A stretch of DNA of 64,000 nt from a candidate division Kazan bacterium GW2011_GWA1_50_15. GTDB taxonomy: Bacteria > Patescibacteriota > Kazan-3B-28. Positions 2 to 34,302 of this stretch are shown in pieces (the first letter of the stretch is position 1; the number at the start of each line of letters is the position of its first letter). Both the position numbers and the translations under genes were made by a program. The notes beneath the pieces are model-generated. The model worked only from the letters and a program-made list of their open reading frames with translations. It searched no databases and had not been told where the DNA came from. The DNA is taken from contig CP011216.1 of the NCBI GenBank assembly GCA_001029795.1, positions 211,398 to 275,397 of the forward strand, given 5' to 3'.

Positions 2-2188
2 AAGAAGGACTTTAAGACAGCATTCGTTAAAGGACTGACCGGACTGGCTTCCGAGGTGGTACGAGGGGCTTTGAGCGGCCAGCCACCGGTGCCGGCCGTG
101 CCGGGCAAAGTGGAATTGCCTCCCGGGGTGGATGAGGTCTTAAAGCGGATAGAAGAAAAAAGCAACAAGCTTGGCTTTCAGGTGCGGATCCGGATAGTGG
201 CGCTGGATCAGACCGCCGCCGCCGCCCGTCAGAAGCTGGACTTGGTGGTGGGCTCGTTTAAACAATTCAACACCACTAATCTAAATGGATTCGCCGCGGT
301 GCCAGTGGCGGCACCGGCGGAAGTTATTTTGCGCGACTACGAACATCGGGGGTTTGGCGGTAAGGGCGCCATCTTAAATGTGGCCGAATTGGCCAGCATT
401 TATCATCTGCCGAGTAAGACCGTGACCACCCCGCACATTGTTTGGGCGGGCTCCAAAAAAGGGGAACCGCCAGCCAACTTGCCGTTGGCTGATGAGATAC
501 CGTCTGAAGAGCTGACGAATTTAGGGATCACGGATTTCCGCGGCAGTACAGAAAAATTCGGCATTAAAATTAAAGACCGCCGCAGGCATGTCTATATCAT
601 CGGGAAAAGCGGTGTAGGCAAATCGACACTCTTAGAAAATATGACGCTGGACGACATTCGCGAACGCCGCGGCGTGGGCGTGGTGGATCCGCACGGCGAG
701 TATGTCGACTATGTTTTGGAACGCATCCCATCATATCGGATGAACGATGTTATCGTATTTGACCCGGGCGACCGCAGTTTCCCGATCGGATTTAATGTGT
801 TAGAGGTGGATACGCCAGACCAGAAAGTGGTCACGGCCTCCGGGGTTGTGGGCGTATTTAAAAAGATATTCGGTGAGTCGTGGGGGCCGCGGCTGGAGTA
901 TTGGCTCTCTTCGGCCATCCTGGCGCTGTTGGACTATCCGGACGCGACTTTGATGATGGTGCCGCGGTTGTTTACCGACGATACTTTTCGGGCCGGAGTG
1001 ATCGATGCGGTCAAGGATCCGGTCATTAAACAACGGTGGCTGAACGAGTATGACCGGCTTGACCAGCGCCAGCGCAACGAGACCATTTCGCCAATTTTGA
1101 ATAAAGTAGGACAGTTCCTGTCCAGTTCCGTTATCCGCAACATCGTCGGTCAGCCCAAGAGCTCTATTGATATGCGGGAGGTGATGGACGAGGGTAAGAT
1201 CGTGCTGATCAAACTGGCCAAAGGATTGATCGGGGAGGACAACGCGGCGCTTTTAGGGGCGCTGATGATTACCAAGCTGCAGTTGGCGGCGCTGTCGCGG
1301 GCGGATGTGGAGGAAGCCAAGCGGCCGGACTTTTTCTTGTATGTTGATGAGTTCCAAAACTTTGCTACCGATTCATTCGCCACGATTTTGTCGGAGGCAC
1401 GCAAATACCATTTGAGTTTGACGCTGGCCAACCAATATATGAGCCAGCTGTCGGATACGGTCAAGAACGCTATCTTTGGCAATGTGGGGACGCTGGTATC
1501 GTTCCGAGTGGGCGGTGATGATGCCGGATTTTTGACCAAAGAGTTCGCGCCAGTGTTTGACGAACAGGATTTGGTGAATTTGGATATCTTTAAAGTTTAT
1601 TTGAAGCTATCGATCGACGGGTTAACGGCGAATGCGTTCTCGGCCGTGACCCTGCCGCCTTCCACTGACCAGAACCAGAATAGTGAGAAGATCATCAAAT
1701 TGTCGCGCGAACGCTACGCCAAGGATGTGAAGTTCGTGGAGGGTAAGGTACTGTCTAGCGCTGATGTCAGCGCCGCACTGGCCTCTGCCCCCAAGACTGC
1801 GCCGTGGGCTGGTCAGAAACCGTCTCAGTACGGCCAGCGGCCCCCGCAAGGGCAAGGGACGAGCCGTCCGCCGATGAGTAGTGGTTCTCGGCCGCCGCTG
1901 AGGCCCAGTGCGCCCGTCCAGCGGACCGGGCCCAAGATCGACCTATTGAAAAATCTCATCTCCAAAGTTGAGCGTCAGAAACAAGCGCCATTGAGTGAGG
2001 GTGAGAAAGAGGATGTGGCCAAGACCTTAATGAACGATCTCAAAGATGCGACTGGTTCGATGAAGGATGCATTGGACCGGGCCCGGCAGCAGCGCGAGGA
2101 AGAACAGAAACAATCAAGTGAGTTAAAGCCCAACGAGCCGATCAAGTTGGATGAGGACGATTACGATCCACATAACGAACGTCGGTAA
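2..2188 (+). CDS. TraD/TrwB/VirD4-like type IV coupling protein-like ATPase, 5' truncated by the window edge; Pro/Gln/Gly-rich acidic C-terminal tail
   Basis: The frame is open back to position 2 and the listed start at 56 is GTG. Walker A (GKSGVGKST), a VDPHGE box, Walker B-like FLYVDEFQN, and ARKY...QYMSQL arginine-finger region as in TrwB/TraD. It aligns to the paralog at 10684..13092 from that protein's residue ~230. Confidence 0.7.
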   Translation, partial: KKDFKTAFVKGLTGLASEVVRGALSGQPPVPAVPGKVELPPGVDEVLKRIEEKSNKLGFQVRIRIVALDQTAAAARQKLDLVVGSFKQFNTTNLNGFAAVPVAAPAEVILRDYEHRGFGGKGAILNVAELASIYHLPSKTVTTPHIVWAGSKKGEPPANLPLADEIPSEELTNLGITDFRGSTEKFGIKIKDRRRHVYIIGKSGVGKSTLLENMTLDDIRERRGVGVVDPHGEYVDYVLERIPSYRMNDVIVFDPGDRSFPIGFNVLEVDTPDQKVVTASGVVGVFKKIFGESWGPRLEYWLSSAILALLDYPDATLMMVPRLFTDDTFRAGVIDAVKDPVIKQRWLNEYDRLDQRQRNETISPILNKVGQFLSSSVIRNIVGQPKSSIDMREVMDEGKIVLIKLAKGLIGEDNAALLGALMITKLQLAALSRADVEEAKRPDFFLYVDEFQNFATDSFATILSEARKYHLSLTLANQYMSQLSDTVKNAIFGNVGTLVSFRVGGDDAGFLTKEFAPVFDEQDLVNLDIFKVYLKLSIDGLTANAFSAVTLPPSTDQNQNSEKIIKLSRERYAKDVKFVEGKVLSSADVSAALASAPKTAPWAGQKPSQYGQRPPQGQGTSRPPMSSGSRPPLRPSAPVQRTGPKIDLLKNLISKVERQKQAPLSEGEKEDVAKTLMNDLKDATGSMKDALDRARQQREEEQKQSSELKPNEPIKLDEDDYDPHNERR

Positions 2189-2193
2189 AAATC

Positions 2194-2222
2194 TTGACCT
2201 AGAGCGCAGGATGGGATAGATT
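2194..2222 (+). promoter_or_regulatory. Candidate sigma70 promoter (TTGACC, 17 nt spacer, TAGATT) upstream of ORF 2256
   Basis: Spacing and hexamers read directly from the sequence. A GGAGGTG RBS precedes the ATG at 2256. Confidence 0.35.
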
Positions 2223-2255
2223 ACACCTATCTTTCTTGTTCTTTGGAGGTGAAAA

Positions 2256-2615
2256 ATGAACGGTGCGATGATGCCTCCTCCGCCAGCATTAGCGGAGGTA
2301 CGCGCAGCATATATCGAGGCGCTCGTGGAAGACGACATTGCTCGTGCTCACCGGCTGGCCGAGAGTGCCAATATCGACGCCAACACAGTGACGCGGTGGA
2401 TATGCGCGGCCATTGGTCTGCTCGTTGATGAGTGGAGGTTCAGACAAGCGCTAACCCTGGCCATTGGTTGTAATCTGCCGATGCATGTAACCCGACACAT
2501 TATCGTAGAGTGGCGCAAAGCCGATGTCGTGCCGGGGACTCGGGATACAGCCATCGTTGACGTGCTCTGCGACCATCCGGCGCTGGCCTATTTATTCCCG
2601 GATGAGGAGGGTTAG
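2256..2615 (+). CDS. Hypothetical protein (119 aa)
   Basis: ORF with a good RBS (GGAGGTGAAAA-ATG). No recognisable motif. Confidence 0.4.
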   Translation: MNGAMMPPPPALAEVRAAYIEALVEDDIARAHRLAESANIDANTVTRWICAAIGLLVDEWRFRQALTLAIGCNLPMHVTRHIIVEWRKADVVPGTRDTAIVDVLCDHPALAYLFPDEEG

Positions 2616-2618
2616 CCG

Positions 2619-2798
2619 ATGCCGTGTTCAGCTTGTGGCGAAAGCGCCGTGAATATGTGTCCCCATTGCGGATGGCCGTTCTGCACCGAGCATATGCAGG
2701 AGCACAACTGCTGGCCGGATGCCGGCCGCCCATTGGTCGCTTTTCCCGATAAGGTCGGGGAGGATGCCGGTGACCGACCGTCTCATCAGAGTCCTTGA
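2619..2798 (+). CDS. Small Cys/His-rich zinc-ribbon-like protein (59 aa, below the ORF-track cutoff)
   Basis: ATG lies 4 nt after the stop of the previous ORF. Translation MPCSACGESAVNMCPHCGWPFCTEHMQEHNCW carries CxxC...CxxC...CxxH...C spacing. Read manually from the DNA. Confidence 0.35.
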   Translation: MPCSACGESAVNMCPHCGWPFCTEHMQEHNCWPDAGRPLVAFPDKVGEDAGDRPSHQSP

Positions 2799-2885
2799 AT
2801 TTTATAAAGCCAACCCTTGCGGTTGGCTTTTTTCTTGCTCTGGGAGCGGGTTAGGAATAGAATTAAAGTGAAGTAGAATACTCTT

Positions 2886-6158
<3,273 letters not shown>

Positions 6159-6159
<1 letters not shown>

Positions 6160-6545
6160 TGGACCTACGGCGATTGAAAAATAGTTTTGTTTACGCCATG
6201 CGCGGAATTGGTGAATTGTTTCGCGGTCAGCAGAACTTTCGCATTGAAGTTATTGGTGCGGTAGTGGTGATAGCTGTCGCTTATGCTCTGCAAGTGCGGA
6301 CGATCGAAAAAGCCATTTTAACTTTGGTTATCTTGTTGGTCTTAGCAGCCGAAGCGACTAACAGTGTGTTGGAACGGGTTTTGGATGGGGTGAACAAGGA
6401 GATTAACCCGCACTTCCGCGCGGCCAAAGATATGATGGCGGGTCTGACCCTGTTGATGGTTATTGGCGCCATCGTGGTCGGATTCATCATTTTTTATCCA
6501 TATCTGAAACCGATACTTTGGTCCCCTAGTCGGTTGGCCGGGTGA
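6159..6545 (+). CDS. dgkA: Diacylglycerol/undecaprenol kinase family membrane protein
   Basis: Three TM helices and the conserved EATNSVLERV...D motif of the DgkA family. 128 aa. Confidence 0.7.
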
Positions 6546-6585
6546 TGTGATGCAGTAAAGCGTTTGATTCCGGGCGGTTTTTTCT

Positions 6586-6927
6586 TTGTCTGAAGCTCTC
6601 TTTTTCAGCTATAATGGCAGTATGCCTCTGCCCAAAGACCAGGTAGAGTGGGTGGCGCGGCTGGCTTACATCGAGCTGACCAAGGCCGAAACATCCAAAT
6701 ATGCCGAAGAACTGTCGGCGGTTTTAGGGTATGTGGATGAGTTGCGGGAAGTAGATACCTCTACGGTTGACGGTAATCCGCCAGCTGGCGGACAAATTAC
6801 GGGTTTGAGCAATGTCTTGGCGGCTGATGCCGTGTCACCATCTGAGATCACTCGGGAGGAGTTTTTGGAGCGGGCGCCGGCATCGGAAAAAGGCTATATC
6901 AAGGTGAAGAGTGTCTTTAAGAAATGA
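6586..6927 (+). CDS. gatC: Asp/Glu-tRNA amidotransferase subunit C; the true start is probably the internal Met near 6622
   Basis: LAYIELTKAE...YVDELREVDT pattern typical of GatC. Immediately upstream of gatA. Confidence 0.8.
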   Translation: MSEALFFSYNGSMPLPKDQVEWVARLAYIELTKAETSKYAEELSAVLGYVDELREVDTSTVDGNPPAGGQITGLSNVLAADAVSPSEITREEFLERAPASEKGYIKVKSVFKK

Positions 6928-6951
6928 CAAATTAAAAATTACAAATAACAA

Positions 6952-8304
6952 ATGGAGATTAGAGAGGCGGAAAAACTGGGGATTGAGAAGGCGACGGAGG
7001 AGTCGTTGAAGATTATTAAATCCAAGAGCGAGCTCAATGCGATTTTGTCTGTCAACGACAAGCCGAAACTGTCCAAAAGCGGAAGTTTGAATGTTCCGTA
7101 TATCTGCAAAGATAATATCGTCACTAAAGAACTGCCGACTACGGCTGCCTCCAAAATCTTGGAGGGATTTGTTTCTCCGTATGAGGCAACCGTGGTGATG
7201 AAACTGCGAGAGGCCGGGGCGGTGATGGTGGGCAAATCCAATTTGGACGAGTTCGCTATGGGTTCCAGCACTGAAAATTCAGCTTTTGGTCCAACTAAGA
7301 ATCCACATGACCCAACTCGGGTGCCGGGCGGCAGTTCCGGTGGCTCAGCTGCGGCCGTAGCGGCCGGTATGGCCTCATTTGCCTTGGGCAGCGATACGGG
7401 TGGCTCCATCCGTCAGCCAGCCAGTTTTTGCGGGGTGGTGGGACTAATGCCAACCTACGGCCGAGTTAGTCGGTATGGGCTAATCGCTATGGCCAGTTCG
7501 CTGGACCGGATCGGTCCGATTACCACCAACGTGAAAGATGCGGCGAGAGTTTTGCGGGTAATCGCTGGACATGACGAACATGATTCCACCACAATGGCTA
7601 TCGAAGTGCCAGATTATGTGGCAGCGCTGGATGGCGACATTAAGGACTTAAAGATAGGTGTCCCTAAGGGATTTTTTGACGAGGGCGTAGACGCGCCAGT
7701 AGCGCAAGCAGTGCAAGCGGCGGTCGATAAATTACGACAGTTAGGAGCGATCGTGAGCGAGATAGAATTGCCACACGCAAAATTTGCTCTTGCGACTTAC
7801 TATATTCTTCAGCCCTCCGAAGTATCGGCTAATTTGGCGCGGTATGACGGCATTCGGTATGGGTTAAGTGCCTCTGATGCTAAAAATTTGTGGGAAGTTT
7901 ACGATAAATCTCGAGCTCAAGGATTTGGGGCGGAGGTGAAACGGCGGATAATGCTTGGGACTTACACGCTCTCGGCAGGTTTCCGCGATGCCTACTACGA
8001 CAAAGCCCAGCGGGTGCGGACACTCATCAAACAGGATTTTGATAAGGCGTTCAAGCAGGTGGATGTTATTATCACGCCGACTACCCCGACGGTGGCGTTC
8101 AAGCTCGGGGAGCGGGCCAAAGATCCGTTGAGTATGTACAAGGCGGACTTGCTGACCACGCCGGCCAGCTTGGCGGGTATTCCAGTTATCTCGGTACCGT
8201 GCGGAGAGGTGGAGGGACTACCGGTGGGATTACAAATTATGGGTCGGCAGTTCGACGAAAAGACCATTTTGCGGGTGGCCTACGCATATGAACAGAAGCA
8301 GTAA
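6952..8304 (+). CDS. gatA: Asp/Glu-tRNA amidotransferase subunit A
   Basis: Amidase signature [14 protein letters not shown] and Ser-cisSer-Lys triad context. 450 aa. Confidence 0.9.
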
Positions 8305-8325
8305 AAAGTTTACGTCCCTTCTCGC

Positions 8326-8360
8326 CACTATTCATAATTCACTATTCATCATTCATTCTT
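8326..8360. repeat. AT-rich inverted repeat (left arm) built from ATTCAT/CACTATTCAT units, flanking the inserted ORF 8365..8778
   Basis: Left arm cactattcataattcactattcatcattcattc; the right arm at 8780..8812 reads gaatagtgaataatgaatcatgaattagg, an imperfect reverse complement sharing attcactattc. Confidence 0.45.
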
Positions 8361-8364
8361 TCAA

Positions 8365-8778
8365 ATGATTTACGGCTGGATACTATTTATCGTAGTGGTA
8401 CTGGGCGGAGGCATGATGCTTTACGCGATGTCTAAGAAGCGGGCCTTGTCCGATATTGATCGGGACAAGGTGCGTTCCGCTTGGGCCAATATCGAACTTC
8501 TAGTGGAGGGTGATAATGACTCAGAGTGGGTCAAGGCAGTGTTTGAGGCCGATAAACTTTTGGATTTTGCATTGGTCCAGCGCCGAGTGGCGGGCGAAAG
8601 TTTGGGTGAGCGTTTAAAGAATGCTAAACCATTATTTGGCAATATCGATGCGGCTTGGCAGGCGCATAAGGTGCGCAATGAGTTAGCTCACAATATGAAC
8701 GCTCAACTGACGCGTCCACAGATCGAACGGGCGATGGATAATTTTAAGCGGGCGTTGAGGCGGTTGGGAGCGCTGTGA
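8365..8778 (+). CDS. Membrane-anchored small protein with a HEPN-like R-x4-H motif (KVRNELAH), inserted between gatA and gatB
   Basis: N-terminal TM helix (ILFIVVVLGGGMMLYAM) followed by a ~110 aa region containing RNELAH. Flanked by AT-rich inverted repeats. Confidence 0.4.
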   Translation: MIYGWILFIVVVLGGGMMLYAMSKKRALSDIDRDKVRSAWANIELLVEGDNDSEWVKAVFEADKLLDFALVQRRVAGESLGERLKNAKPLFGNIDAAWQAHKVRNELAHNMNAQLTRPQIERAMDNFKRALRRLGAL

Positions 8779-8779
8779 A

Positions 8780-8812
8780 CGAATAGTGAATAATGAATCA
8801 TGAATTAGGAAT
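8780..8812. repeat. AT-rich inverted repeat (right arm) flanking ORF 8365..8778; overlaps the gatB RBS and alternative start
   Basis: See the left arm at 8326..8360. Confidence 0.45.
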
Positions 8813-10220
8813 TATGGAAGAGGCGGACGCAAAATATGAGGCGGTGATCGGGCTGGAGATCCACGTCCAGCTAAGGACTGTGTCCAAGATGTTTTGTCGG
8901 TGCGATAACGATTCTGACAAGGCTCGGCCGAACACTAATGTCTGCCCAGTGTGTATGGGTTATCCGGGGACATTGCCGGTAACGAACGAGCAGGCCATAG
9001 ATTGGGGCATTAAAACCGCGTTGGCGCTGGGTTGCGCGGTGAATCCATTGCAGCGGTTTGATCGCAAGAACTACTTCTACCCGGACCTGCCAAAAGGTTA
9101 TCAGATTTCACAGTTCTTTTATCCGGTAGGCGAAAAGGGCAATGTGGATGTGGACTATTTGGCGTCTGATCGCAAGACCAGAAAGGAGTTTTCGGTCGGG
9201 ATAACACGGCTGCACCTTGAGGAGGATGCTGGCAAACTTATCCATACCCAGGACGGTACGCTAGTGGACTTGAACCGGTGTGGGACACCCCTGATAGAGA
9301 TCGTGACCGAGCCGGATATTAAATCGCCGGAAGAGGCCAAGGCGTTTATGCAAGAGTTGCAAAGGATGGTCAGAAGCCTCGGCGTATCGATGGCTGATAT
9401 GGAAAAAGGACACTTACGGGTGGACGCCAACGTGTCGGTCAGACCGATCGGCCAAGACGTCTTAGGAGCGAAGGTGGAGGTCAAAAACATGAACTCATTT
9501 AAGTTTATGGAAATGGCCTTGAAATTCGAGGTTGAGCGGCAAACGGCGATGCTAGAAAAAGGGGAGGTGATCGAACAAGAGACCCGGGGGTGGGATGAAA
9601 AGACCAATTCAACCGTATCTCAGCGGACTAAGGAAGGTTCGGTTGATTACCGGTATTTCCCCGAGCCGGACCTGCCCCCTATCTATATTGATCAAGATAA
9701 GATAGACGGAACTAAGAATCAATTAGCAGCGTTGCCGGCTGAGTTACGGTCGCGGGGCGAGGCGAGCGGTCTGCCGTATGCGCGGGTGGTCGAGTTGCAG
9801 GACTTGGGTAAAATGTCCGAGTTCGTGCAATTAACAACAGACTATAACGATATTGACCCGGTGCTGTTGGCTAACTGGATCACTAAAGACTTTGCCAGCA
9901 CTAAAGACCTGCGCGAGTTTGTGATAATTGTTAAATTAGAAGGTCTGTCTAACGCAGCGGCGCAAAAACTGTACGCTCTAATGCAGACCAAGAAGCTGCC
10001 GCCGCAGGATCTGGTTGGGCAGATCCAGATGGCGGATAAAGATGAACTAACCGGCCTAGTAAAACAGGTTTTGGCGGAGAACGCCGACGCAGTGGCCAAA
10101 TTTAAAGCAGGCAATACCCAGGTTTTGGCCTATCTAACGGGGCAGGTGATGAAGAAGAGTGGGGGAAGGGCAGAACCCGCTCTGGCACAGCAAATTTTGC
10201 AATCCCTCTTGACAGATTAA
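8793..10220 (+). CDS. gatB: Asp/Glu-tRNA amidotransferase subunit B; the likely true start is the ATG at 8814
   Basis: YEAVIGLEIHVQL...CRCDN...CPVCMGYPGTLP motifs classic for GatB. 475 aa. Confidence 0.9.
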   Translation: MNHELGIMEEADAKYEAVIGLEIHVQLRTVSKMFCRCDNDSDKARPNTNVCPVCMGYPGTLPVTNEQAIDWGIKTALALGCAVNPLQRFDRKNYFYPDLPKGYQISQFFYPVGEKGNVDVDYLASDRKTRKEFSVGITRLHLEEDAGKLIHTQDGTLVDLNRCGTPLIEIVTEPDIKSPEEAKAFMQELQRMVRSLGVSMADMEKGHLRVDANVSVRPIGQDVLGAKVEVKNMNSFKFMEMALKFEVERQTAMLEKGEVIEQETRGWDEKTNSTVSQRTKEGSVDYRYFPEPDLPPIYIDQDKIDGTKNQLAALPAELRSRGEASGLPYARVVELQDLGKMSEFVQLTTDYNDIDPVLLANWITKDFASTKDLREFVIIVKLEGLSNAAAQKLYALMQTKKLPPQDLVGQIQMADKDELTGLVKQVLAENADAVAKFKAGNTQVLAYLTGQVMKKSGGRAEPALAQQILQSLLTD

Positions 10221-10237
10221 AGGAAGTATGGTATAAT
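10209..10237 (+). promoter_or_regulatory. Near-consensus sigma70 promoter (TTGACA, 17 nt spacer, TATAAT with TG extension) overlapping the gatB 3' end
   Basis: TTGACAgattaaaggaagtatggTATAAT read directly. Positioned to drive ORF 10279 and the coupling-protein paralog at 10684. Confidence 0.5.
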
Positions 10238-10278
10238 GGAAGTGAGAGCTAAAAAACTTTTAAATCTGCCTTCTAGGA

Positions 10279-10665
10279 ATGGCAAACTCTAATTCTAACG
10301 GGGGTAGAAAGGTTCGAGAGATGAATACTAAACCTTTTGGGGATGGCGAGCGGATCTTATCCCAAGATTCCGTTCAGCACGAGCTACCAGAAGCGGATCA
10401 GACAGAACTAACCCGTTCGGCCGAACAGCCGATCTTAGACGATGAAGACAATGCGGATGTGGCCGTTCCGTTCGTCGACGCTGATGTTGTTGGTCAAGTT
10501 TACAGCCCGGAGGCGACAGTTAAGGCTATGGCAGCGAGTGCGATAGCTGGTAGCCGAAAGGGCGGCGATAGGGCACACGAACTGATCGAGCGTGTTTTTC
10601 AGAGTGATTTGGCTAGCGATAGCGGTGCGTTGAATCGAGTTGTGCAGGTGTTAAACCAACGTTAA
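10279..10665 (+). CDS. Hypothetical acidic protein (128 aa)
   Basis: ORF only. Acidic N-terminal half with no recognised motif. 18 nt upstream of the coupling-protein-like gene. Confidence 0.35.
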   Translation: MANSNSNGGRKVREMNTKPFGDGERILSQDSVQHELPEADQTELTRSAEQPILDDEDNADVAVPFVDADVVGQVYSPEATVKAMAASAIAGSRKGGDRAHELIERVFQSDLASDSGALNRVVQVLNQR

Positions 10666-10683
10666 CGGATAGGGGAGATACTA

Positions 10684-13092
10684 ATGATCTGGCTGGGGAT
10701 AATAATTTTTATGGTTGTGGCCGCCGTTGGCGGGTTTATTTTTGTGCGAGTCCGCAAACCCGCGGTTAAATCGGATGATGTGCGGACGCGGGTCAACTTG
10801 ATGATCACAGTCCCGCGCGGTAACAAGGAAGAGGCCCAAAAAGAGACTAAAGCGCTGGTCGCCCCAATGGAGGTGATCTTGAACAACCTAACTGGCGTAG
10901 CGGAAGTTATCGGCGAGCGCCACCTAACTTTCGAGATCGCCACGGAAGGGGAACTGATCACATTTTACGTCACCGTGCCGGACAGCCTGGTAGATTTTCT
11001 AGAGAAGCAGATTACTTCGCAGTATCCGGAAGCGGCAGTGGAGCGGGCTCCGTATCCAAACATTTTTCCCAAAGAGGGGAAGGTGGCCGCGGTTCAGCTA
11101 AAGTTACAAAAAGATAGTTGGCTGCCCCTCGTAACATATGAAAAATTGAGTGCTGACGGACTTAACGCGCTGACCAATGCTTTAAGCAAACTGGTAGATA
11201 TGCAGTCTGGCGCCGCTATCCAGATCGCATTCCGGCCAACCACCCGAACCAGCTGGCAGACTAAGGCCCACAGTATCGCTAGAAGCATGCAGCAGGGCAA
11301 GGAGGCGGGGAGCATCGGTCAAGGCGTGGTGAAGGGTCTGGGTGGGCTAGTGACCGGCCCAGAGAGTAAAGATAAGAGCAGCGAGCCGCCTAAGAAACTT
11401 ACTCAACTACAAGAAGAAGTGATCGCTCGAATAGAACAGAAAGCCTCTAAACCAGGGTTTGATGTGGTGGTCCGGTTGATAGCAGCGGCGCCGGACGAAG
11501 CTCAGGCTCGGATGCATCTGCGGTCGCTGTCAGATAGTTTTTTGCAGTTTGGCTCGCCAGAGATGAATCGATTTGTGGTCGCCACGGAGCCGGAGTCGGA
11601 AGTGGTGCGCAACTATGTTTTGCGTCAGTTTGGAGATGTGAAGGGGAGTTTCATTTTGAATGTAGAGGAACTGGCGACCGTGTTCCATATTCCCACAGCT
11701 CAGATCGATACGCCTAACGTGCGATGGCAGAAAGCCAAACGATTGCCGGCGCCGGATAATTTGCCGGTTGATGGGGTGATCTTGGGCAAGAATGTATTCC
11801 GGGGTGTGGACAAAACGGTACGGATAAAAACTGATGACCGGCGCCGGCATGTCTACACCATCGGTAAAACCGGGACAGGGAAGACTACTTGGATGCAGAA
11901 TTTAGCTCTGCAGGATATCGTTAACGGCGAGGGGGTGGCTGTCATTGATCCGCATGGCGATATGATCGAGTGGTTGCTGCAGCGCATCCCCAAAGACAGA
12001 GTGGATGACGTGATCTATTTCTATCCGCCGGACGTGGAGCGGCCATTGGGGCTGAACCTGCTGGAGGCTAAGACCGCTGCGGCCAAAGATATGGTTGTGG
12101 TTGAGATGATAGCGATATTTTATAAACTGTTTGACCCGCAGAGTTCGGGTATTGTTGGTCCGATATTTGAGCACTACATGCGCAATGCCATGTTGCTGCT
12201 GTTGGCTGATCCCGAGGATGGAGCGACTTTGATTGATATCCCGCGAGTGTTCACCGACAAGACTTTCCGGGAGCGTAAACTCCAACACGTCTCTGATCCC
12301 ACTGTGCTGCGATTCTGGAAGGAAGAGTTTGCCCAGGCGGAAAAAAGTAATCAGGTGGGGGAGTTGTTCTCCTACATTGTTTCCAAAGTAGGACGGTTTA
12401 TCAGCAACGAGATGATGCGGAATATTGTGGGCCAGACCAAGAGCGCCTTTGATATCCGTGACATTATGGATAACAAAAAGATCCTGCTGGTTAATTTGGC
12501 CAAAGGTCTGACCGGCGATATCAACAGTAATTTGTTGGGCTTTATCATTGTCTCGAAACTGCAGATGGCAGCGTTGTCTCGAGCGGATGTATCGGAGATG
12601 AACCGACCGGACTTCTACCTCTATATCGACGAGTTCCAAAACGTAACGACGGATTCTATCTCCACGATCTTGTCGGAGGCCAGAAAGTATCGTTTGAATC
12701 TAACGATCGCGCATCAGTTCGTGGCACAGCTGGAAGATAAGATCCGCGACGCGGTTTTGGGTAACGTCGGTTCGATCGTAGCGTTCAGGATCGGCGCACC
12801 GGATACGGATGTGATCGGCAAAGAGTTCGCGCCAGAGGTCAGCGAGAACGATTTGGTGAATATCGAGAGTCGCAATGCGTACGTAAAACTAATGATCGAT
12901 GGCGCGGCCAGCAAACCGTTCACTATGCAGACCTTGCCGCCGATGGGCCAAGATAATCCTAAGATCGGTTCGGCCATCAAGCAATTATCCCGCTTGAAGT
13001 TTGGGAAGGACCGTCGGATGGTAGAGCTGACCGTGGCAGAGCGGATTAAGTATGTGAAAGATATTGACCTGTCTGGGGACTTGCTGAAATAG
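10684..13092 (+). CDS. TraD/TrwB/VirD4-like type IV coupling protein-like ATPase, full length, with an N-terminal TM anchor
   Basis: TM helix at residues 1-22, Walker A GKTGTGKTT, VIDPHGDM (compare TrwB VDPNGD), Walker B LYIDEFQN, and ARKYRLNLTIAHQFVAQL. Paralog of ORF 2..2188. Confidence 0.75.
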   Translation: MIWLGIIIFMVVAAVGGFIFVRVRKPAVKSDDVRTRVNLMITVPRGNKEEAQKETKALVAPMEVILNNLTGVAEVIGERHLTFEIATEGELITFYVTVPDSLVDFLEKQITSQYPEAAVERAPYPNIFPKEGKVAAVQLKLQKDSWLPLVTYEKLSADGLNALTNALSKLVDMQSGAAIQIAFRPTTRTSWQTKAHSIARSMQQGKEAGSIGQGVVKGLGGLVTGPESKDKSSEPPKKLTQLQEEVIARIEQKASKPGFDVVVRLIAAAPDEAQARMHLRSLSDSFLQFGSPEMNRFVVATEPESEVVRNYVLRQFGDVKGSFILNVEELATVFHIPTAQIDTPNVRWQKAKRLPAPDNLPVDGVILGKNVFRGVDKTVRIKTDDRRRHVYTIGKTGTGKTTWMQNLALQDIVNGEGVAVIDPHGDMIEWLLQRIPKDRVDDVIYFYPPDVERPLGLNLLEAKTAAAKDMVVVEMIAIFYKLFDPQSSGIVGPIFEHYMRNAMLLLLADPEDGATLIDIPRVFTDKTFRERKLQHVSDPTVLRFWKEEFAQAEKSNQVGELFSYIVSKVGRFISNEMMRNIVGQTKSAFDIRDIMDNKKILLVNLAKGLTGDINSNLLGFIIVSKLQMAALSRADVSEMNRPDFYLYIDEFQNVTTDSISTILSEARKYRLNLTIAHQFVAQLEDKIRDAVLGNVGSIVAFRIGAPDTDVIGKEFAPEVSENDLVNIESRNAYVKLMIDGAASKPFTMQTLPPMGQDNPKIGSAIKQLSRLKFGKDRRMVELTVAERIKYVKDIDLSGDLLK

Positions 13093-13193: not shown

Positions 13194-13724
13194 ATGGAAG
13201 ATAAATCAAAAATCGAAGTCGTCAAACAACTCTTAGAAACCGCTACCGCCAACTTGGCTTCGGCCAAGCAGATTTTGGGTGAGCTGCTAGGGACCTCTTT
13301 TGACGATTTGCCTGCCAAAGTCGCCGGCTTGAAGTCCGAGGGCAATGTAGTTGAGGGCGTGTTTAACGGCGAACATATGCTCGATAAGGACGGTAGGAAG
13401 TATCCAGTGCCGGCCAACTATGCTAGTAAGTCTAAACTGGTGGCTGGCGATGTGTTGAAGTTGACCATTCAAGCGGATGGTTCATTCATTTTTAAACAGA
13501 TCGGACCAGTTGAGCGTAAAAAGTTGATCGGTACGGTCGTCTACGAAAATGATGAGTATAAGGTCGTAGCTGGCGGCAAATCGTATGCCGTGCTGATGGC
13601 CTCGGTAACGTACTTCAAGCTCAAGCCAGGGGACCAGACCACCATCCTAGTGCCGGAGAATGACGACAATGCCCACTGGGCCGCTATTGAAAGTGCGGTC
13701 ATCTCGCCGGGGAGTGAAGGATAG
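13194..13724 (+). CDS. Hypothetical protein (176 aa) with two internally repeated beta-rich segments
   Basis: ORF with a GAGGAG RBS. No recognised motif. Confidence 0.4.
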   Translation: MEDKSKIEVVKQLLETATANLASAKQILGELLGTSFDDLPAKVAGLKSEGNVVEGVFNGEHMLDKDGRKYPVPANYASKSKLVAGDVLKLTIQADGSFIFKQIGPVERKKLIGTVVYENDEYKVVAGGKSYAVLMASVTYFKLKPGDQTTILVPENDDNAHWAAIESAVISPGSEG

Positions 13725-31167: not shown

Positions 31168-32106
31168 TCAAGCCTCCTTTTTAACTAGGTTGGCGGGTTT
31201 GTCATCGCGTAGACCCAGGTAGACCGGTGCGCGGAGAATGTTATCGTTGGTCCACTCTAGAAATTTGAACTGGCCGACCAACTGCGGTTTAATCCAGGTG
31301 GTACCAGTATTGTCTAAGTCGTCTGCAAATGGCGAACGGGCAGTTTTGAGCCGACCCATGATTAGTTTCAGGCGGCGGCGTTCTAGCTGGGTGAACCCGG
31401 TTCCGACCTGACCGGCAAATTTCAGTTTGCCGCGGGCATAATAGCCGACAAGAACAGCGCCGAAGGTACGGGCGACTTTACCATAACCGCGGGTGAAACC
31501 GCCGATCACCAGTTCTTGTTCGTTGTGAGCTTTGATCTTCACCCAGCCGTATCCCCGCTTCCCCGGCAGATACTTGCTATCCTTCTTTTTGCCGATAATC
31601 CCTTCCCAACCGGAGCGCTTGGCCTTGGCGAACAGAGCCACACCTTTGCCATCAACGCCCTCGAGATATTTAATCCGAACGCTTTTAGCGATCCGCTTCA
31701 GCAGTTTTTTTCTGGCCACCAGTGGCTGGTTCGTAACTGACTTACCCTCCAGTGCCAAAATATCAAAAGCGTGATAAACGACCGGCACGGTGCGAGCTAA
31801 CCTGGCGATGATAGCCGGATTAGTTTGCTGCATCCGCGGCTGGAGGGCTTGGAACGAGCTCGCCACCCGTTTAGTGGCGGCCAATTCGCCATCCAACACC
31901 ACCGAGATTGTCGGCAGTTTGCGAGCGACCTCAACTATTTCCGGAAATTGGCGGCTCCGGTCAATTCCCCGGCGGGTAAATAGTTTGATGTTTTGGCGGT
32001 GTTTGACTAGAATAATGCGAGTGCCGTCTATCTTGCACTCAAAGAGCCAGTCCTTATCGTTGAAGGGTTTGTCTACTGGCTTACACAGCATAGGTGAGTA
32101 TCGCAT
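31168..32106 (-). CDS. ATP-dependent DNA ligase (compact LigD-ligase-domain/phage-like, 312 aa)
   Basis: Motif I KIDGTR (ECKIDGTRIIL), motif III/IV pattern, and a C-terminal OB region. Confidence 0.75.
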   Translation of the reverse strand: MRYSPMLCKPVDKPFNDKDWLFECKIDGTRIILVKHRQNIKLFTRRGIDRSRQFPEIVEVARKLPTISVVLDGELAATKRVASSFQALQPRMQQTNPAIIARLARTVPVVYHAFDILALEGKSVTNQPLVARKKLLKRIAKSVRIKYLEGVDGKGVALFAKAKRSGWEGIIGKKKDSKYLPGKRGYGWVKIKAHNEQELVIGGFTRGYGKVARTFGAVLVGYYARGKLKFAGQVGTGFTQLERRRLKLIMGRLKTARSPFADDLDNTGTTWIKPQLVGQFKFLEWTNDNILRAPVYLGLRDDKPANLVKKEA

Positions 32107-32430: not shown

Positions 32431-34302
32431 CTAGTCGAAGATGCCTTTAACCCCGCGTTCGCGGGCTTTTTCGAGCAGCTCTTCGCGCCGCGACCGAGGC
32501 GCAGGAAGGCTCTCGGGTTCAGCCGCAGGCATCGGTGCTTCGGATTGGTAACGATCCTCTCTGATCGGCGGGGGTAAGGTCTCTGGTTCATCATCCTCGA
32601 TCAAACTATCAGCCGATGTACTGACTTCATCCTCGACAACAGTTACGAGCGGCATCGGGGTTTCTGTGGTTTCGTTTGTCTCGTTATCCCGGGTGTCCCA
32701 TCGGCTAACGCCAGTTTCTCGGCATTGGGCCAAAATGGCGGAGCAGGCTCGTAATTCCCTAACGATACGTTTGCGAATGGCATATCTTTTTAATTTATCG
32801 AAGGCTTCGGCCTCGATCTGCCGAATGCGCTCGCGAGTAACATTTAATATTTCACCTACCTCCTGTAAGGTTTTCTCGTCCTTCCCGCCAATGCCGTAGC
32901 GCTCGATTACCACCACCCTCTGGCGCTCATTTAGACCAGCGGATCTGATCCACTGCATGACCTGCTCCCTGGCGGCATGGTAAGTAGCCACTTCTTCTGG
33001 TGAGGGGCTACTGTTATCGGGTAGCCACTCCCCTAAGGCGGTGGCCTCCTCCGTCCATCCACCCCGGGTGCTTGAACTAATCGGGGCGTCGAGTGAAACT
33101 GGCATCTGGATGTGCTCGAGCAGATCATCTAGCTTTTCTTCGGTCATCCCCAATTGTTTAGCGATTTCATCCTTGCTTAGGGGCTGGCCGTCATCATCAA
33201 CAAGTTTTCTGATACGATGCATCGTTTCGTGCACATGCACTGGCTTGCGGGATAGATCCTTTTCATTCATCAGCCCTCGTCCAATGGCTTGACGGATCCA
33301 CCAGGTGGCATAGGTGGAGAACTTGTAACCCTTCTCGGGATCGAATTTCTCTACTGCTCGGATAAGCCCGAACTGACCAAAAGAAATGAGGTCGGCAAGG
33401 GGCATGCCCCTGTTAATGAACTTTCTAGCGTAATGGACGACCAGACGGAGGTTGGCTTCGATAAAGTGGTTCTTCGCCTCTTGGTCGCCATTTTGGACCC
33501 GGCGAGCCAATACCACCTCTTCGTCTTTAGTTAACAAGGGAACCTTAGCGATTTGATGAAGATAGGCCAAATATTCGTTCTGGAGGGCGAGTTGTTCTTG
33601 GGCTTTACGTTCGGGGTCGCTTATCTTTTCTTCTCCGAAATCGACTATCTCTGCTTCTTTTGCTTCGGCTTTTTCGATGGGAATAACTTGGGTCGTTTCA
33701 CGAGCAGAAGCTTTAGCGGGCCGGAGGATTGGTTCGGCAACCACCGTGGGCACGATCTCCTTTGGGGTATCGTGATAGGCTGCTTCCACGGACTGATAAG
33801 CCCCTAAAAGCTCTAACAGCTCGGGAGAAAAGAATTCACCGTCCTTGTAGGTGCGTTGCCACTCGGGGTGGGCTTCAAGATGTGGCTTGATAATATGCGC
33901 CGCCATTTCACTATCCGTAGCAAGCCAACGAGACAACTCATCCATGTCCCGCCAATCCATCGGGGCAGACCGGGTGACCGCGTCCAATTCTCCCTTAAGA
34001 TGTTCAACGATCATTATTGAAACCTCGGTGTTACAACCCTTACCGTTGCCTCTAAACGCCTCGGGGTGGGCGGTATGATATTTATTTAAAAGCATGGTTA
34101 ACTCTAGCTCGACGCGGTCGAAAAGTTCTGGCAGATCATCCAAAGGCACCCACCGGGTTTCGGCACACGCTTGTTCTTGTCGGGCGATCCGTTCGACCGC
34201 GACCCCGTTTAAAAATTCATCCCAATCCTCGGCCGGGGTCAGTCGGCGGGGCGAGTCTTTAGCCACTGGGATTTGGGTTTTGGTTAATTCAAATTTCCGC
34301 AT
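32431..34302 (-). CDS. rpoD: RNA polymerase sigma-70 factor RpoD with an unusual ~110 aa acidic/Pro-rich C-terminal extension
   Basis: Region 2 (IEANLRLVVHYARKF...YATWWIRQAI), region 3, and region 4.2 (TLQEVGEILNVTRERIRQIE). The ORF continues ~110 aa beyond region 4.2. Confidence 0.9.
   Translation of the reverse strand: MRKFELTKTQIPVAKDSPRRLTPAEDWDEFLNGVAVERIARQEQACAETRWVPLDDLPELFDRVELELTMLLNKYHTAHPEAFRGNGKGCNTEVSIMIVEHLKGELDAVTRSAPMDWRDMDELSRWLATDSEMAAHIIKPHLEAHPEWQRTYKDGEFFSPELLELLGAYQSVEAAYHDTPKEIVPTVVAEPILRPAKASARETTQVIPIEKAEAKEAEIVDFGEEKISDPERKAQEQLALQNEYLAYLHQIAKVPLLTKDEEVVLARRVQNGDQEAKNHFIEANLRLVVHYARKFINRGMPLADLISFGQFGLIRAVEKFDPEKGYKFSTYATWWIRQAIGRGLMNEKDLSRKPVHVHETMHRIRKLVDDDGQPLSKDEIAKQLGMTEEKLDDLLEHIQMPVSLDAPISSSTRGGWTEEATALGEWLPDNSSPSPEEVATYHAAREQVMQWIRSAGLNERQRVVVIERYGIGGKDEKTLQEVGEILNVTRERIRQIEAEAFDKLKRYAIRKRIVRELRACSAILAQCRETGVSRWDTRDNETNETTETPMPLVTVVEDEVSTSADSLIEDDEPETLPPPIREDRYQSEAPMPAAEPESLPAPRSRREELLEKARERGVKGIFD

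Follow-up and report, generated by a model that had tools for sequence, protein, structure and literature searches.

The 64-kb stretch of the candidate division Kazan bacterium GW2011_GWA1_50_15 analyzed here (the window, part of a 602,646-bp contig) encodes two paralogous membrane-anchored ATPases, paralogue 1 (2..2188, + strand) and paralogue 2 (10684..13092, + strand, 802 aa; 100% identical to protein VE98_C0001G0231). These are very probably, to judge from comparison of their sequences, a pair of copies of ancient origin that represent one branch of the type IV coupling protein (T4CP) lineage, a branch domesticated and chromosomally fixed in nearly all of the ultrasmall Patescibacteria, also called the Candidate Phyla Radiation (CPR), to which this organism belongs. 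Each copy is part of a well-supported conserved module, consisting of a small open reading frame (ORF), paralogue 2 and a tandem OB-fold protein on one side, and a sigma-region-4/HARE-HTH protein and paralogue 1 on the other. The best explanation overall, which we would stop just short of calling probable, is that this domesticated pair, together with its module, forms a motor that feeds a chromosomally encoded type IV secretion system (T4SS).

A preliminary description of the window had presented the two ORFs as paralogues carrying the full set of coupling-protein hallmarks and an acidic C-terminal region. Both ORFs exist as described and are paralogous, with 44% identity over 582 aa (E 5e-155). 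Paralogue 1 is 5'-truncated in the window; the full gene encodes 958 aa and starts 689 nt before window position 1. The two proteins share a layout of one N-terminal membrane anchor, a DUF8128 domain of about 300 aa and a VirD4/VirB4-type P-loop motor, and everything beyond the anchor is predicted to be cytoplasmic. We found the Walker A motif as GKSGVGKS in paralogue 1 and GKTGTGKT in paralogue 2, Walker B as YVDEFQN and YIDEFQN, respectively, and a TraG-D_C region with "SEARKY...Q" in both. This part of the claimed hallmark set therefore stands, while the membrane part does not: the hydrophobic segment is single in each protein (residues 1-31 and 1-25 in paralogues 1 and 2) and is followed by a basic cluster and then by the additional DUF8128 domain. 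Likewise, an acidic C-terminus was found only in paralogue 1, which has a disordered tail of about 150 aa with an acidic end (last 30 aa, net charge -6), whereas the tail of paralogue 2 is neutral to basic. The AlphaFold2 model of paralogue 2 (pLDDT 85.8) comprises a transmembrane (TM) helix at residues 2-23, an alpha/beta N-domain corresponding to DUF8128 at about 36-335 with a disordered linker at 207-233, and a P-loop ATPase domain at 365-750 that contains, at about 465-582, the all-helical insertion characteristic of the T4CP nucleotide-binding domain.

DUF8128 (PF26449) was assigned from precomputed Pfam annotations, which place it in both paralogues and in all listed homologues. A search with this domain alone returned 1,229 cluster representatives; of the 150 best hits listed, 148 have it starting within the first 140 residues or so. 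It matched no PDB sequence, and we found no literature on DUF8128 or PF26449. Six proteins with an N-terminal DUF8128 (P0389, P0398, P0427, P0436, P0441 and P0451) measure 1,400-2,000 aa, roughly double the normal length.

The assignment of the two proteins as TraD/TrwB/VirD4-like was upheld by profile, sequence and fold searches, all of which led to VirD4/TrwB/VirB4-type ATPases rather than to FtsK. Both paralogues pass the Pfam gathering scores of TrwB_AAD_bind (PF10412) and TraG-D_C (PF12696), and paralogue 2 also passes that of T4SS-DNA_transf (PF02534); the P-loop nucleotide-binding domain typical of T4CPs is thus present, belonging to the VirD4/VirB4 clade and carrying both Walker motifs and TraG-D_C. 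A profile search against PDB sequences gave TrwB (2e-8) and DotL (1e-5) as top matches. Comparison of the motor with known ATPases gave figures of 29.1 for the VirB4 C-terminal domain, 28.0 for the DptH C-domain, 26.8 for TrwB (358 of 420 residues aligned), 24.8 for HerA, 24.2 for DotL, 22.4 for Cag-beta, 17.1 for TcpA and 16.4 for FtsK. Because the profile, sequence and fold comparisons rank in this way, we place the motor in the VirD4/VirB4/HerA branch and not with FtsK; the FtsK/SpoIIIE combination of a PF01580 motor, alpha, beta and gamma domains and a four-TM N-terminus is absent. Matches to the Pfam DUF87/HerA models are weak, as are NCBIfam matches to the archaeal Ced DNA-import ATPases (CedD 8e-8, CedB 3e-3). 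When the whole paralogue-2 model was searched with Foldseek, the best PDB matches were full-length VirB4/TrwK chains (E about 1e-16, 880-955 columns spanning N-domain and ATPase), while TrwB matched over the ATPase only (about 1e-13). DUF8128 may be related to the VirB4 N-terminal domain, a lead from the predicted model that comes with low TM-scores for the TrwK matches (0.28-0.32) and with no Pfam match to CagE_TrbE_VirB in either paralogue.

The descent of this family became apparent from its relatives outside Patescibacteria. A tblastn search against plasmids returned 316 records, 16 of which cover at least 80% of the query. On a 27.5-kb Bacillus subtilis plasmid, an 885-aa protein gives a collinear alignment over 711 aa, including DUF8128 (24% identity, E 2e-41). 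Its gene is directly followed by those for TcpC, TcpE and an AAA_10 (VirB4-like) ATPase, with a Replic_Relax relaxase gene at the head of this series, which puts it in the coupling-protein slot of a Gram-positive conjugation cluster. On haloarchaeal plasmids the homologue is split in two and lies beside a large conjugal-transfer ATPase and a pilin. Phages carry relatives as well: gp156 of Bacillus phage G (L095, 3320-5797) has 27% identity to paralogue 2 over residues 251-752 (E 9e-35) and adjoins gp155, annotated as VirB-like; SPO1-like phages encode relatives of the paralogue-2 ATPase; and the PHROG family phrog_5156 matches nearly the entire length of paralogue 2 (E 8e-82). Since the same full-length architecture fills the coupling-protein position on Bacillus plasmids, we regard the Patescibacteria genes as domesticated conjugation motors; their descent from conjugative coupling proteins is demonstrated at the level of sequence. 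This kinship fits the published descent of the Patescibacteria T4SS from the monoderm MPF_FATA type (PMC12102498).

Each paralogue query retrieved thousands of CPR homologues. A neighbor-joining tree of 234 full-length proteins divided them 117/117 according to the query, with a p-distance of 0.61 between the two groups, designated par1 and par2, compared to 0.41-0.45 within them. Both clades remained monophyletic when plasmid and phage outgroups were included, at outgroup p-distances of 0.73-0.77 that leave the root unplaced. By these distances and groupings, par1 and par2 are the products of an ancient duplication that has been vertically conserved across the Patescibacteria classes. Patescibacteria-type paralogue-2 genes with 43-45% identity were also observed in ten metagenome-assembled genomes (MAGs; L010, L015, L019, L026, L027, L045, L057, L059, L067 and L069) labelled as Gammaproteobacteria, Bdellovibrionales, Methylomirabilota, Pristimantibacillus or Sulfotelmatobacter, which are probably mislabelled or contaminated bins.

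The gene neighborhood defines the module. In Kazan, the HTH gene and par1 come first and are separated by 8.5 kb of housekeeping genes from a second group made up of the small ORF, par2 and a 176-aa ORF, and the preliminary description had accordingly viewed the paralogues as flanking a housekeeping block. On two distant CPR contigs (L005 and L006), a Berkelbacteria MAG (L036) and two Saccharibacteria-labelled MAGs (L039 and L049), the small ORF, par2, a ~180-aa ORF, a Sigma70_r4/HARE-HTH ORF and par1 form one contiguous cluster, and the intervening block is a lineage-specific split of this cluster. A similar correction applies to the statement that conjugation partners are lacking: no T4SS genes lie nearby, but the paralogues do have conserved partners of another kind, the tandem OB-fold and sigma-r4/HARE-HTH proteins.

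The partner downstream of paralogue 2 is the 176-aa protein (13194..13724, + strand), which is about 50% identical across lineages and for which a search matched at least 8,000 candidates at E <= 0.001. No Pfam model covers it. Its invariant motif reads YPVPANYASKSKL..GD..KL.I..DGS...KQIGP, and its predicted fold (pLDDT 84.6) consists of a long N-terminal helix followed by two OB/cold-shock-like barrels, on which basis it is probably a binder of single-stranded nucleic acid. We observed an OB-fold gene within 4 kb downstream of par2 in 28 of the 69 loci with enough flanking sequence. The partner of paralogue 1 is a 373-aa protein with a Sigma70_r4 domain and two HARE-HTH domains, encoded immediately upstream, outside the window (L001, 5917-7038), and separated from paralogue 1 by an 18-nt gap. 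A hidden Markov model built from three sequences of this HTH protein found it in only 8 loci, a low number that is in line with a genome scan restricted to loci of paralogue 2. On an Abditibacteriota plasmid (H61; AP024153.1, 101177-102208), a gene with the annotation rpoD matches 90% of the length of the Kazan HTH protein (26% identity, E 1e-23) and is the only near-full-length relative of this protein that we found outside Patescibacteria.

Upstream of paralogue 2, separated from it by 18 nt, lies the small ORF (10279..10665, + strand, 128 aa), whose described acidic character was confirmed (22 D/E versus 13 K/R). It is preceded at a distance of 41 nt by a sigma-70-type promoter-like site (10209..10237, + strand) that had been called near-consensus and is in fact a perfect consensus match, with TTGACA, a 17-nt spacer carrying an extended -10 TG, and TATAAT (12 of 12 matches). 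In most loci an ORF of 90-220 aa is tightly coupled upstream of par2, at a spacing of -3 to +40 nt. The sequence of this ORF differs from one lineage to the next: three C-terminal motif families recur elsewhere, none of which the Kazan version matches by BLAST, and no BLAST similarity was detected among the small ORFs of Kazan, L005 and L006, so that what is conserved is the position and not the sequence.

We then considered whether a conjugation apparatus accompanies the two genes in Kazan. Together with 7.7 kb of upstream sequence, obtained through a 10-kb look-up of the next gene, the region covered amounts to about 72 kb. As the preliminary description had stated, Pfam scans of about 55 ORFs in the window detected no relaxase, VirB4, VirB6, pilin or other T4SS gene; they revealed housekeeping genes only, including murA-like, ligA, gatCAB, mfd, pth, der, aminoacyl-tRNA synthetase genes, gyrB, rpoD, glycosyltransferases and a sortase. 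ORFs without annotation at 15.8-18.7 kb were considered as candidate pilin or T4SS genes, and none has pilin-like character. A complete conjugative element just upstream of the window was also looked for, and none is present in the 7.7 kb, which hold uvrA, uvrC, two small ORFs, the 373-aa Sigma70_r4/HARE-HTH gene and the missing 230 codons of paralogue 1. Nonetheless, a T4SS is probably encoded elsewhere in the Kazan genome, since the two genomes of the class Kazan-3B-28 that appear in the excerpt of Table S1 available to us were both scored VirB4-positive (PMC12102498).

The genetics of these genes can be approached through Southlakia epibionticum, the one member of the group amenable to genetic work, whose T4SS is essential and has no recognizable coupling protein or relaxase (Wang et al. 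2023, PMC10633639). In the transposon sequencing (Tn-seq) data of that study (Tables S1/S2), SEML1_0142 (1,019 aa) scored ES/ES/ES at three passages, that is, essential, and SEML1_0141, a 139-aa ORF just upstream of it, scored GD/ES/ES, essential from the second passage. By contrast, SEML1_0293 (921 aa) scored NE (non-essential), while SEML1_0294, a Sigma70_r4 plus HARE-HTH gene just upstream of it, scored ES. gyrB lies 2.5 kb downstream of SEML1_0142, matching the synteny of long par2-type loci, and from this synteny and the BLAST classification of Saccharibacteria loci we assign SEML1_0142 to the par2 type and SEML1_0293 to the par1 type. By our reading of the Tn-seq data, essentiality in S. 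epibionticum extends to the par2 type, the small ORF that goes with it and the HTH protein, and the par1 type is dispensable. The same organism has a canonical essential FtsK with four-TM, alpha, beta and gamma domains, and we accordingly rejected the idea that the paralogues replace FtsK.

Taken together, these observations allow a mechanistic model, which we hold a little more tentatively than the overall explanation, in which the paralogues act as T4SS-coupled nucleic-acid motors. Like other T4CPs, each paralogue would form a membrane-anchored hexameric NTPase ring. It would engage a nucleic-acid substrate, as suggested by the OB-fold and HTH nature of its partners. With the OB-fold protein holding single-stranded nucleic acid and the HTH protein bound to duplex DNA, the two together would stand in for the missing relaxosome. 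Because six single-pass helices are unlikely to form a pore of their own, the motor probably docks on a chromosomal T4SS of the MPF_FATA type that is encoded elsewhere and lacks its own cluster-encoded coupling protein, an arrangement also suggested by the T4SS and the par2 type both being essential. The paralogue-2 set would be the indispensable one. In a more specific version, which we consider rather improbable, the conjugative coupling protein would have become an essential device for nucleic-acid traffic across the whole phylum. Single-stranded nucleic acid would pass through the essential T4SS, which has no relaxase, driven by the par2 motor together with its small partner and the OB-fold protein. 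Host DNA or RNA might in this way be carried inward to supply nucleotides to cells unable to make them, with par1 and the HTH protein as an accessory or regulatory branch. If true, this version would account for the essentiality of the T4SS and reveal which protein is its "missing" coupling protein.

Several observations weigh against a motor that feeds a T4SS. Neither paralogue has the two N-terminal TM helices of T4CPs, and the NCBIfam T4CP models score them far under their cutoffs (TIGR03743, 55 versus 366 bits; TIGR03754, 31 versus 648; NF045973, 34 versus 250). No plasmid homologue of the OB-fold protein was found, and the HTH partner has no full-length counterpart on a conjugative plasmid. 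The survey by Quinonero-Coronel et al. (2025) covered 3,035 Patescibacteria genomes and identified 5,713 VirD4-type T4CP homologues in 2,918 of them; only 148 homologues lie near virB4, and T4CP homologues occur in 96% of genomes versus 80% for VirB4 (PMC12102498). The orthology of the SEML1 genes is based on synteny and length, not on SEML1 sequences. Finally, the replication and repair neighbors, namely dnaX, gyrB in Saccharibacteria, and ligA, uvrA, uvrC and mfd in Kazan, point instead to DNA maintenance.

The last of these points leads to the strongest alternative, a housekeeping motor that works independently of any T4SS, tethered to the membrane and handling replicating or damaged DNA, its clearance or its segregation, with the OB-fold and HTH proteins as partners. 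dnaX follows par2 on the same strand, with or without the OB-fold gene in between, in 22 of 80 loci, among them 15 of the 53 whose downstream flank is 5 kb or longer (one large group of Patescibacteria, including L007, L008, L010-L013, L016, L019, L026-L028, L031, L032, L035, L052, L075, L076, L090 and L091), and dnaB, ybaB and recR are sometimes near par2 (L007, L042, L090 and L091). gyrB is located 0.1-2.6 kb downstream of par2 in 11 Saccharibacteria-type loci, in which par2 is longer (935-1108 aa), and gatCAB joins the repair genes around the Kazan pair. This alternative is also favored by the essentiality of the paralogue-2 type and of the HTH protein, and by a family distribution that is broader than that of VirB4, with hardly any members near virB4. 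However, adjacency is weak evidence, since genes for DNA functions make up a large share of such small genomes, and the dnaX linkage, confined to 22 loci, may reflect the shared ancestry of related genomes. Furthermore, every characterized relative of this fold acts at a secretion or translocation machine, the full-length homologues outside Patescibacteria lie inside conjugation clusters, and S. epibionticum already possesses its essential canonical FtsK. We consider a DNA-maintenance role unlikely in absolute terms, yet nearly as likely as a T4SS-feeding motor.

A non-conjugative use of the two genes, as the preliminary description had proposed, agrees with the rarity of virB4 linkage and with the survey's count of relaxases in only 103 genomes, compared to VirB4 in 2,417 (PMC12102498). 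DNA uptake, the form of such use suggested there, would have the ATPases pull transforming single-stranded DNA through ComEC or by means of type IV pili while the OB-fold protein coats the strand. A single-stranded substrate would suit the OB-fold partner; Patescibacteria are naturally competent and lack nucleotide synthesis; the non-essential par1-type SEML1_0293 lies five genes from dprA (SEML1_0298); and the weak Ced matches likewise concern import ATPases. Yet comEC of S. epibionticum (SEML1_0777) is non-essential, its deletion abolishing competence while viability is kept, whereas the par2-type SEML1_0142 is essential, so the key role of par2 cannot run through ComEC. Competence-type genes were seen at only one of the 80 loci and eight look-up contexts, as type IV pilus/type II secretion system genes located 4-9 kb away and on the opposite strand (L009). 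We regard uptake as a highly improbable general account, ComEC-dependent uptake being unlikely for par2 and possible for par1. The conjugative nature of the plasmid relatives and the weak DUF87/HerA matches would suit a remnant of a conventional integrated conjugative element or true FtsK/SpoIIIE/HerA members, but no relaxase, VirB4, integrase or composition shift was found over the 72 kb, no HAS-barrel or NurA partner was found, and both genes are vertically conserved as two old clades across Patescibacteria classes. We consider these possibilities extremely improbable, and the domesticated coupling-protein pair feeding a chromosomal T4SS remains our favored reading.

That Patescibacteria encode orphan T4CP homologues has been reported in aggregate (PMC12102498), and a Pfam DUF model of the N-domain exists. 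In the literature that we searched, we found no account of a division into two clades, of a module of five genes or of its OB-fold and HTH partners, nor of a link between the family and full-length coupling proteins of plasmids or of the split into an essential and a dispensable copy. Our analysis corrects the impression given by the survey, which calls "the" S. epibionticum T4CP homologue non-essential (PMC12102498). It also provides testable candidates: an essential coupling-protein-like motor (par2 type, SEML1_0142) whose small partner is essential as well, an OB-fold protein of very high conservation that points to a single-stranded nucleic-acid substrate, and an essential sigma-region-4/HARE-HTH protein tied to a second, dispensable paralogue. 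If the motors act without a T4SS, they would represent one of the few examples of an ATPase from conjugation that was taken over for core functions of the chromosome.

Two further ORFs near the paralogues were considered as parts of the module and dropped. ORF 2256..2615 (119 aa), which lies downstream of paralogue 1, shows no conservation next to the module. The 560-aa ORF that had been described as an Ig-like surface protein has an N-terminal anchor and lies on the opposite strand; it has no Pfam match that would verify the Ig-like label, no homologue in the eight comparison loci checked and no conservation beside the par genes, and it is not part of the system. Elsewhere in the window, an NAD-dependent LigA (4183..6159, + strand) and a compact 312-aa ATP-dependent DNA ligase (31168..32106, - strand) are both encoded in this small genome, and an RpoD-like sigma factor of 623 aa (32431..34302, - strand) has an N-terminal extension of about 240 aa ahead of region 1.2. 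A strongly positive GC skew (0.12-0.18) marks the first 16 kb of the window, after which values stay near zero; this shift is offset from the switch in gene strand, which occurs at about 14 kb.

Among known systems, the TrwB/VirD4/TraD coupling proteins (R388 TrwB, PDB 1E9R; Legionella DotL) share with the Patescibacteria proteins the motor fold, including the all-helical insertion, and N-terminal membrane anchoring, and the disordered tail of paralogue 1 with its acidic end resembles that of TraD. The Patescibacteria proteins differ in having one TM helix instead of two, about 300 aa of DUF8128 between anchor and motor and only 15-18% sequence identity; their genes are chromosomal, form two conserved paralogues unlinked to relaxase or mating-pair genes, and are partnered by OB-fold and sigma-r4/HARE-HTH proteins instead of relaxosome proteins. 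With VirB4 (Thermoanaerobacter VirB4 C-terminal domain, PDB 4AG5; R388 TrwK) they share the layout of an N-domain plus motor, although Patescibacteria encode a separate bona fide VirB4 (PMC12102498). FtsK/SpoIIIE and HerA belong to the same superfamily of ASCE/RecA-like hexameric translocases, but the paralogues lack the four-TM, alpha and gamma domains of FtsK, which coexists with them in its canonical, essential form in S. epibionticum, and no HAS-barrel or NurA partner, as in HerA, was found. The closest relative that we found with an interpretable context is the "DUF87 domain" protein of Bacillus subtilis-group plasmids (for example WP_345805471.1 on NZ_CP154917.1), which has the same full-length architecture within a Tcp-like conjugation cluster, a context that the Patescibacteria genes have lost while being duplicated and gaining other neighbors. 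S. epibionticum, the only organism with genetic data on these genes, differs from Kazan in the longer par2 of Saccharibacteria, which has no adjacent OB-fold gene, and resembles it in carrying the two-paralogue set with the same neighbors: a small ORF, a long par2-type gene (SEML1_0142) and gyrB in one place, and a sigma-r4/HARE-HTH gene with a par1-type gene (SEML1_0293) in the other.

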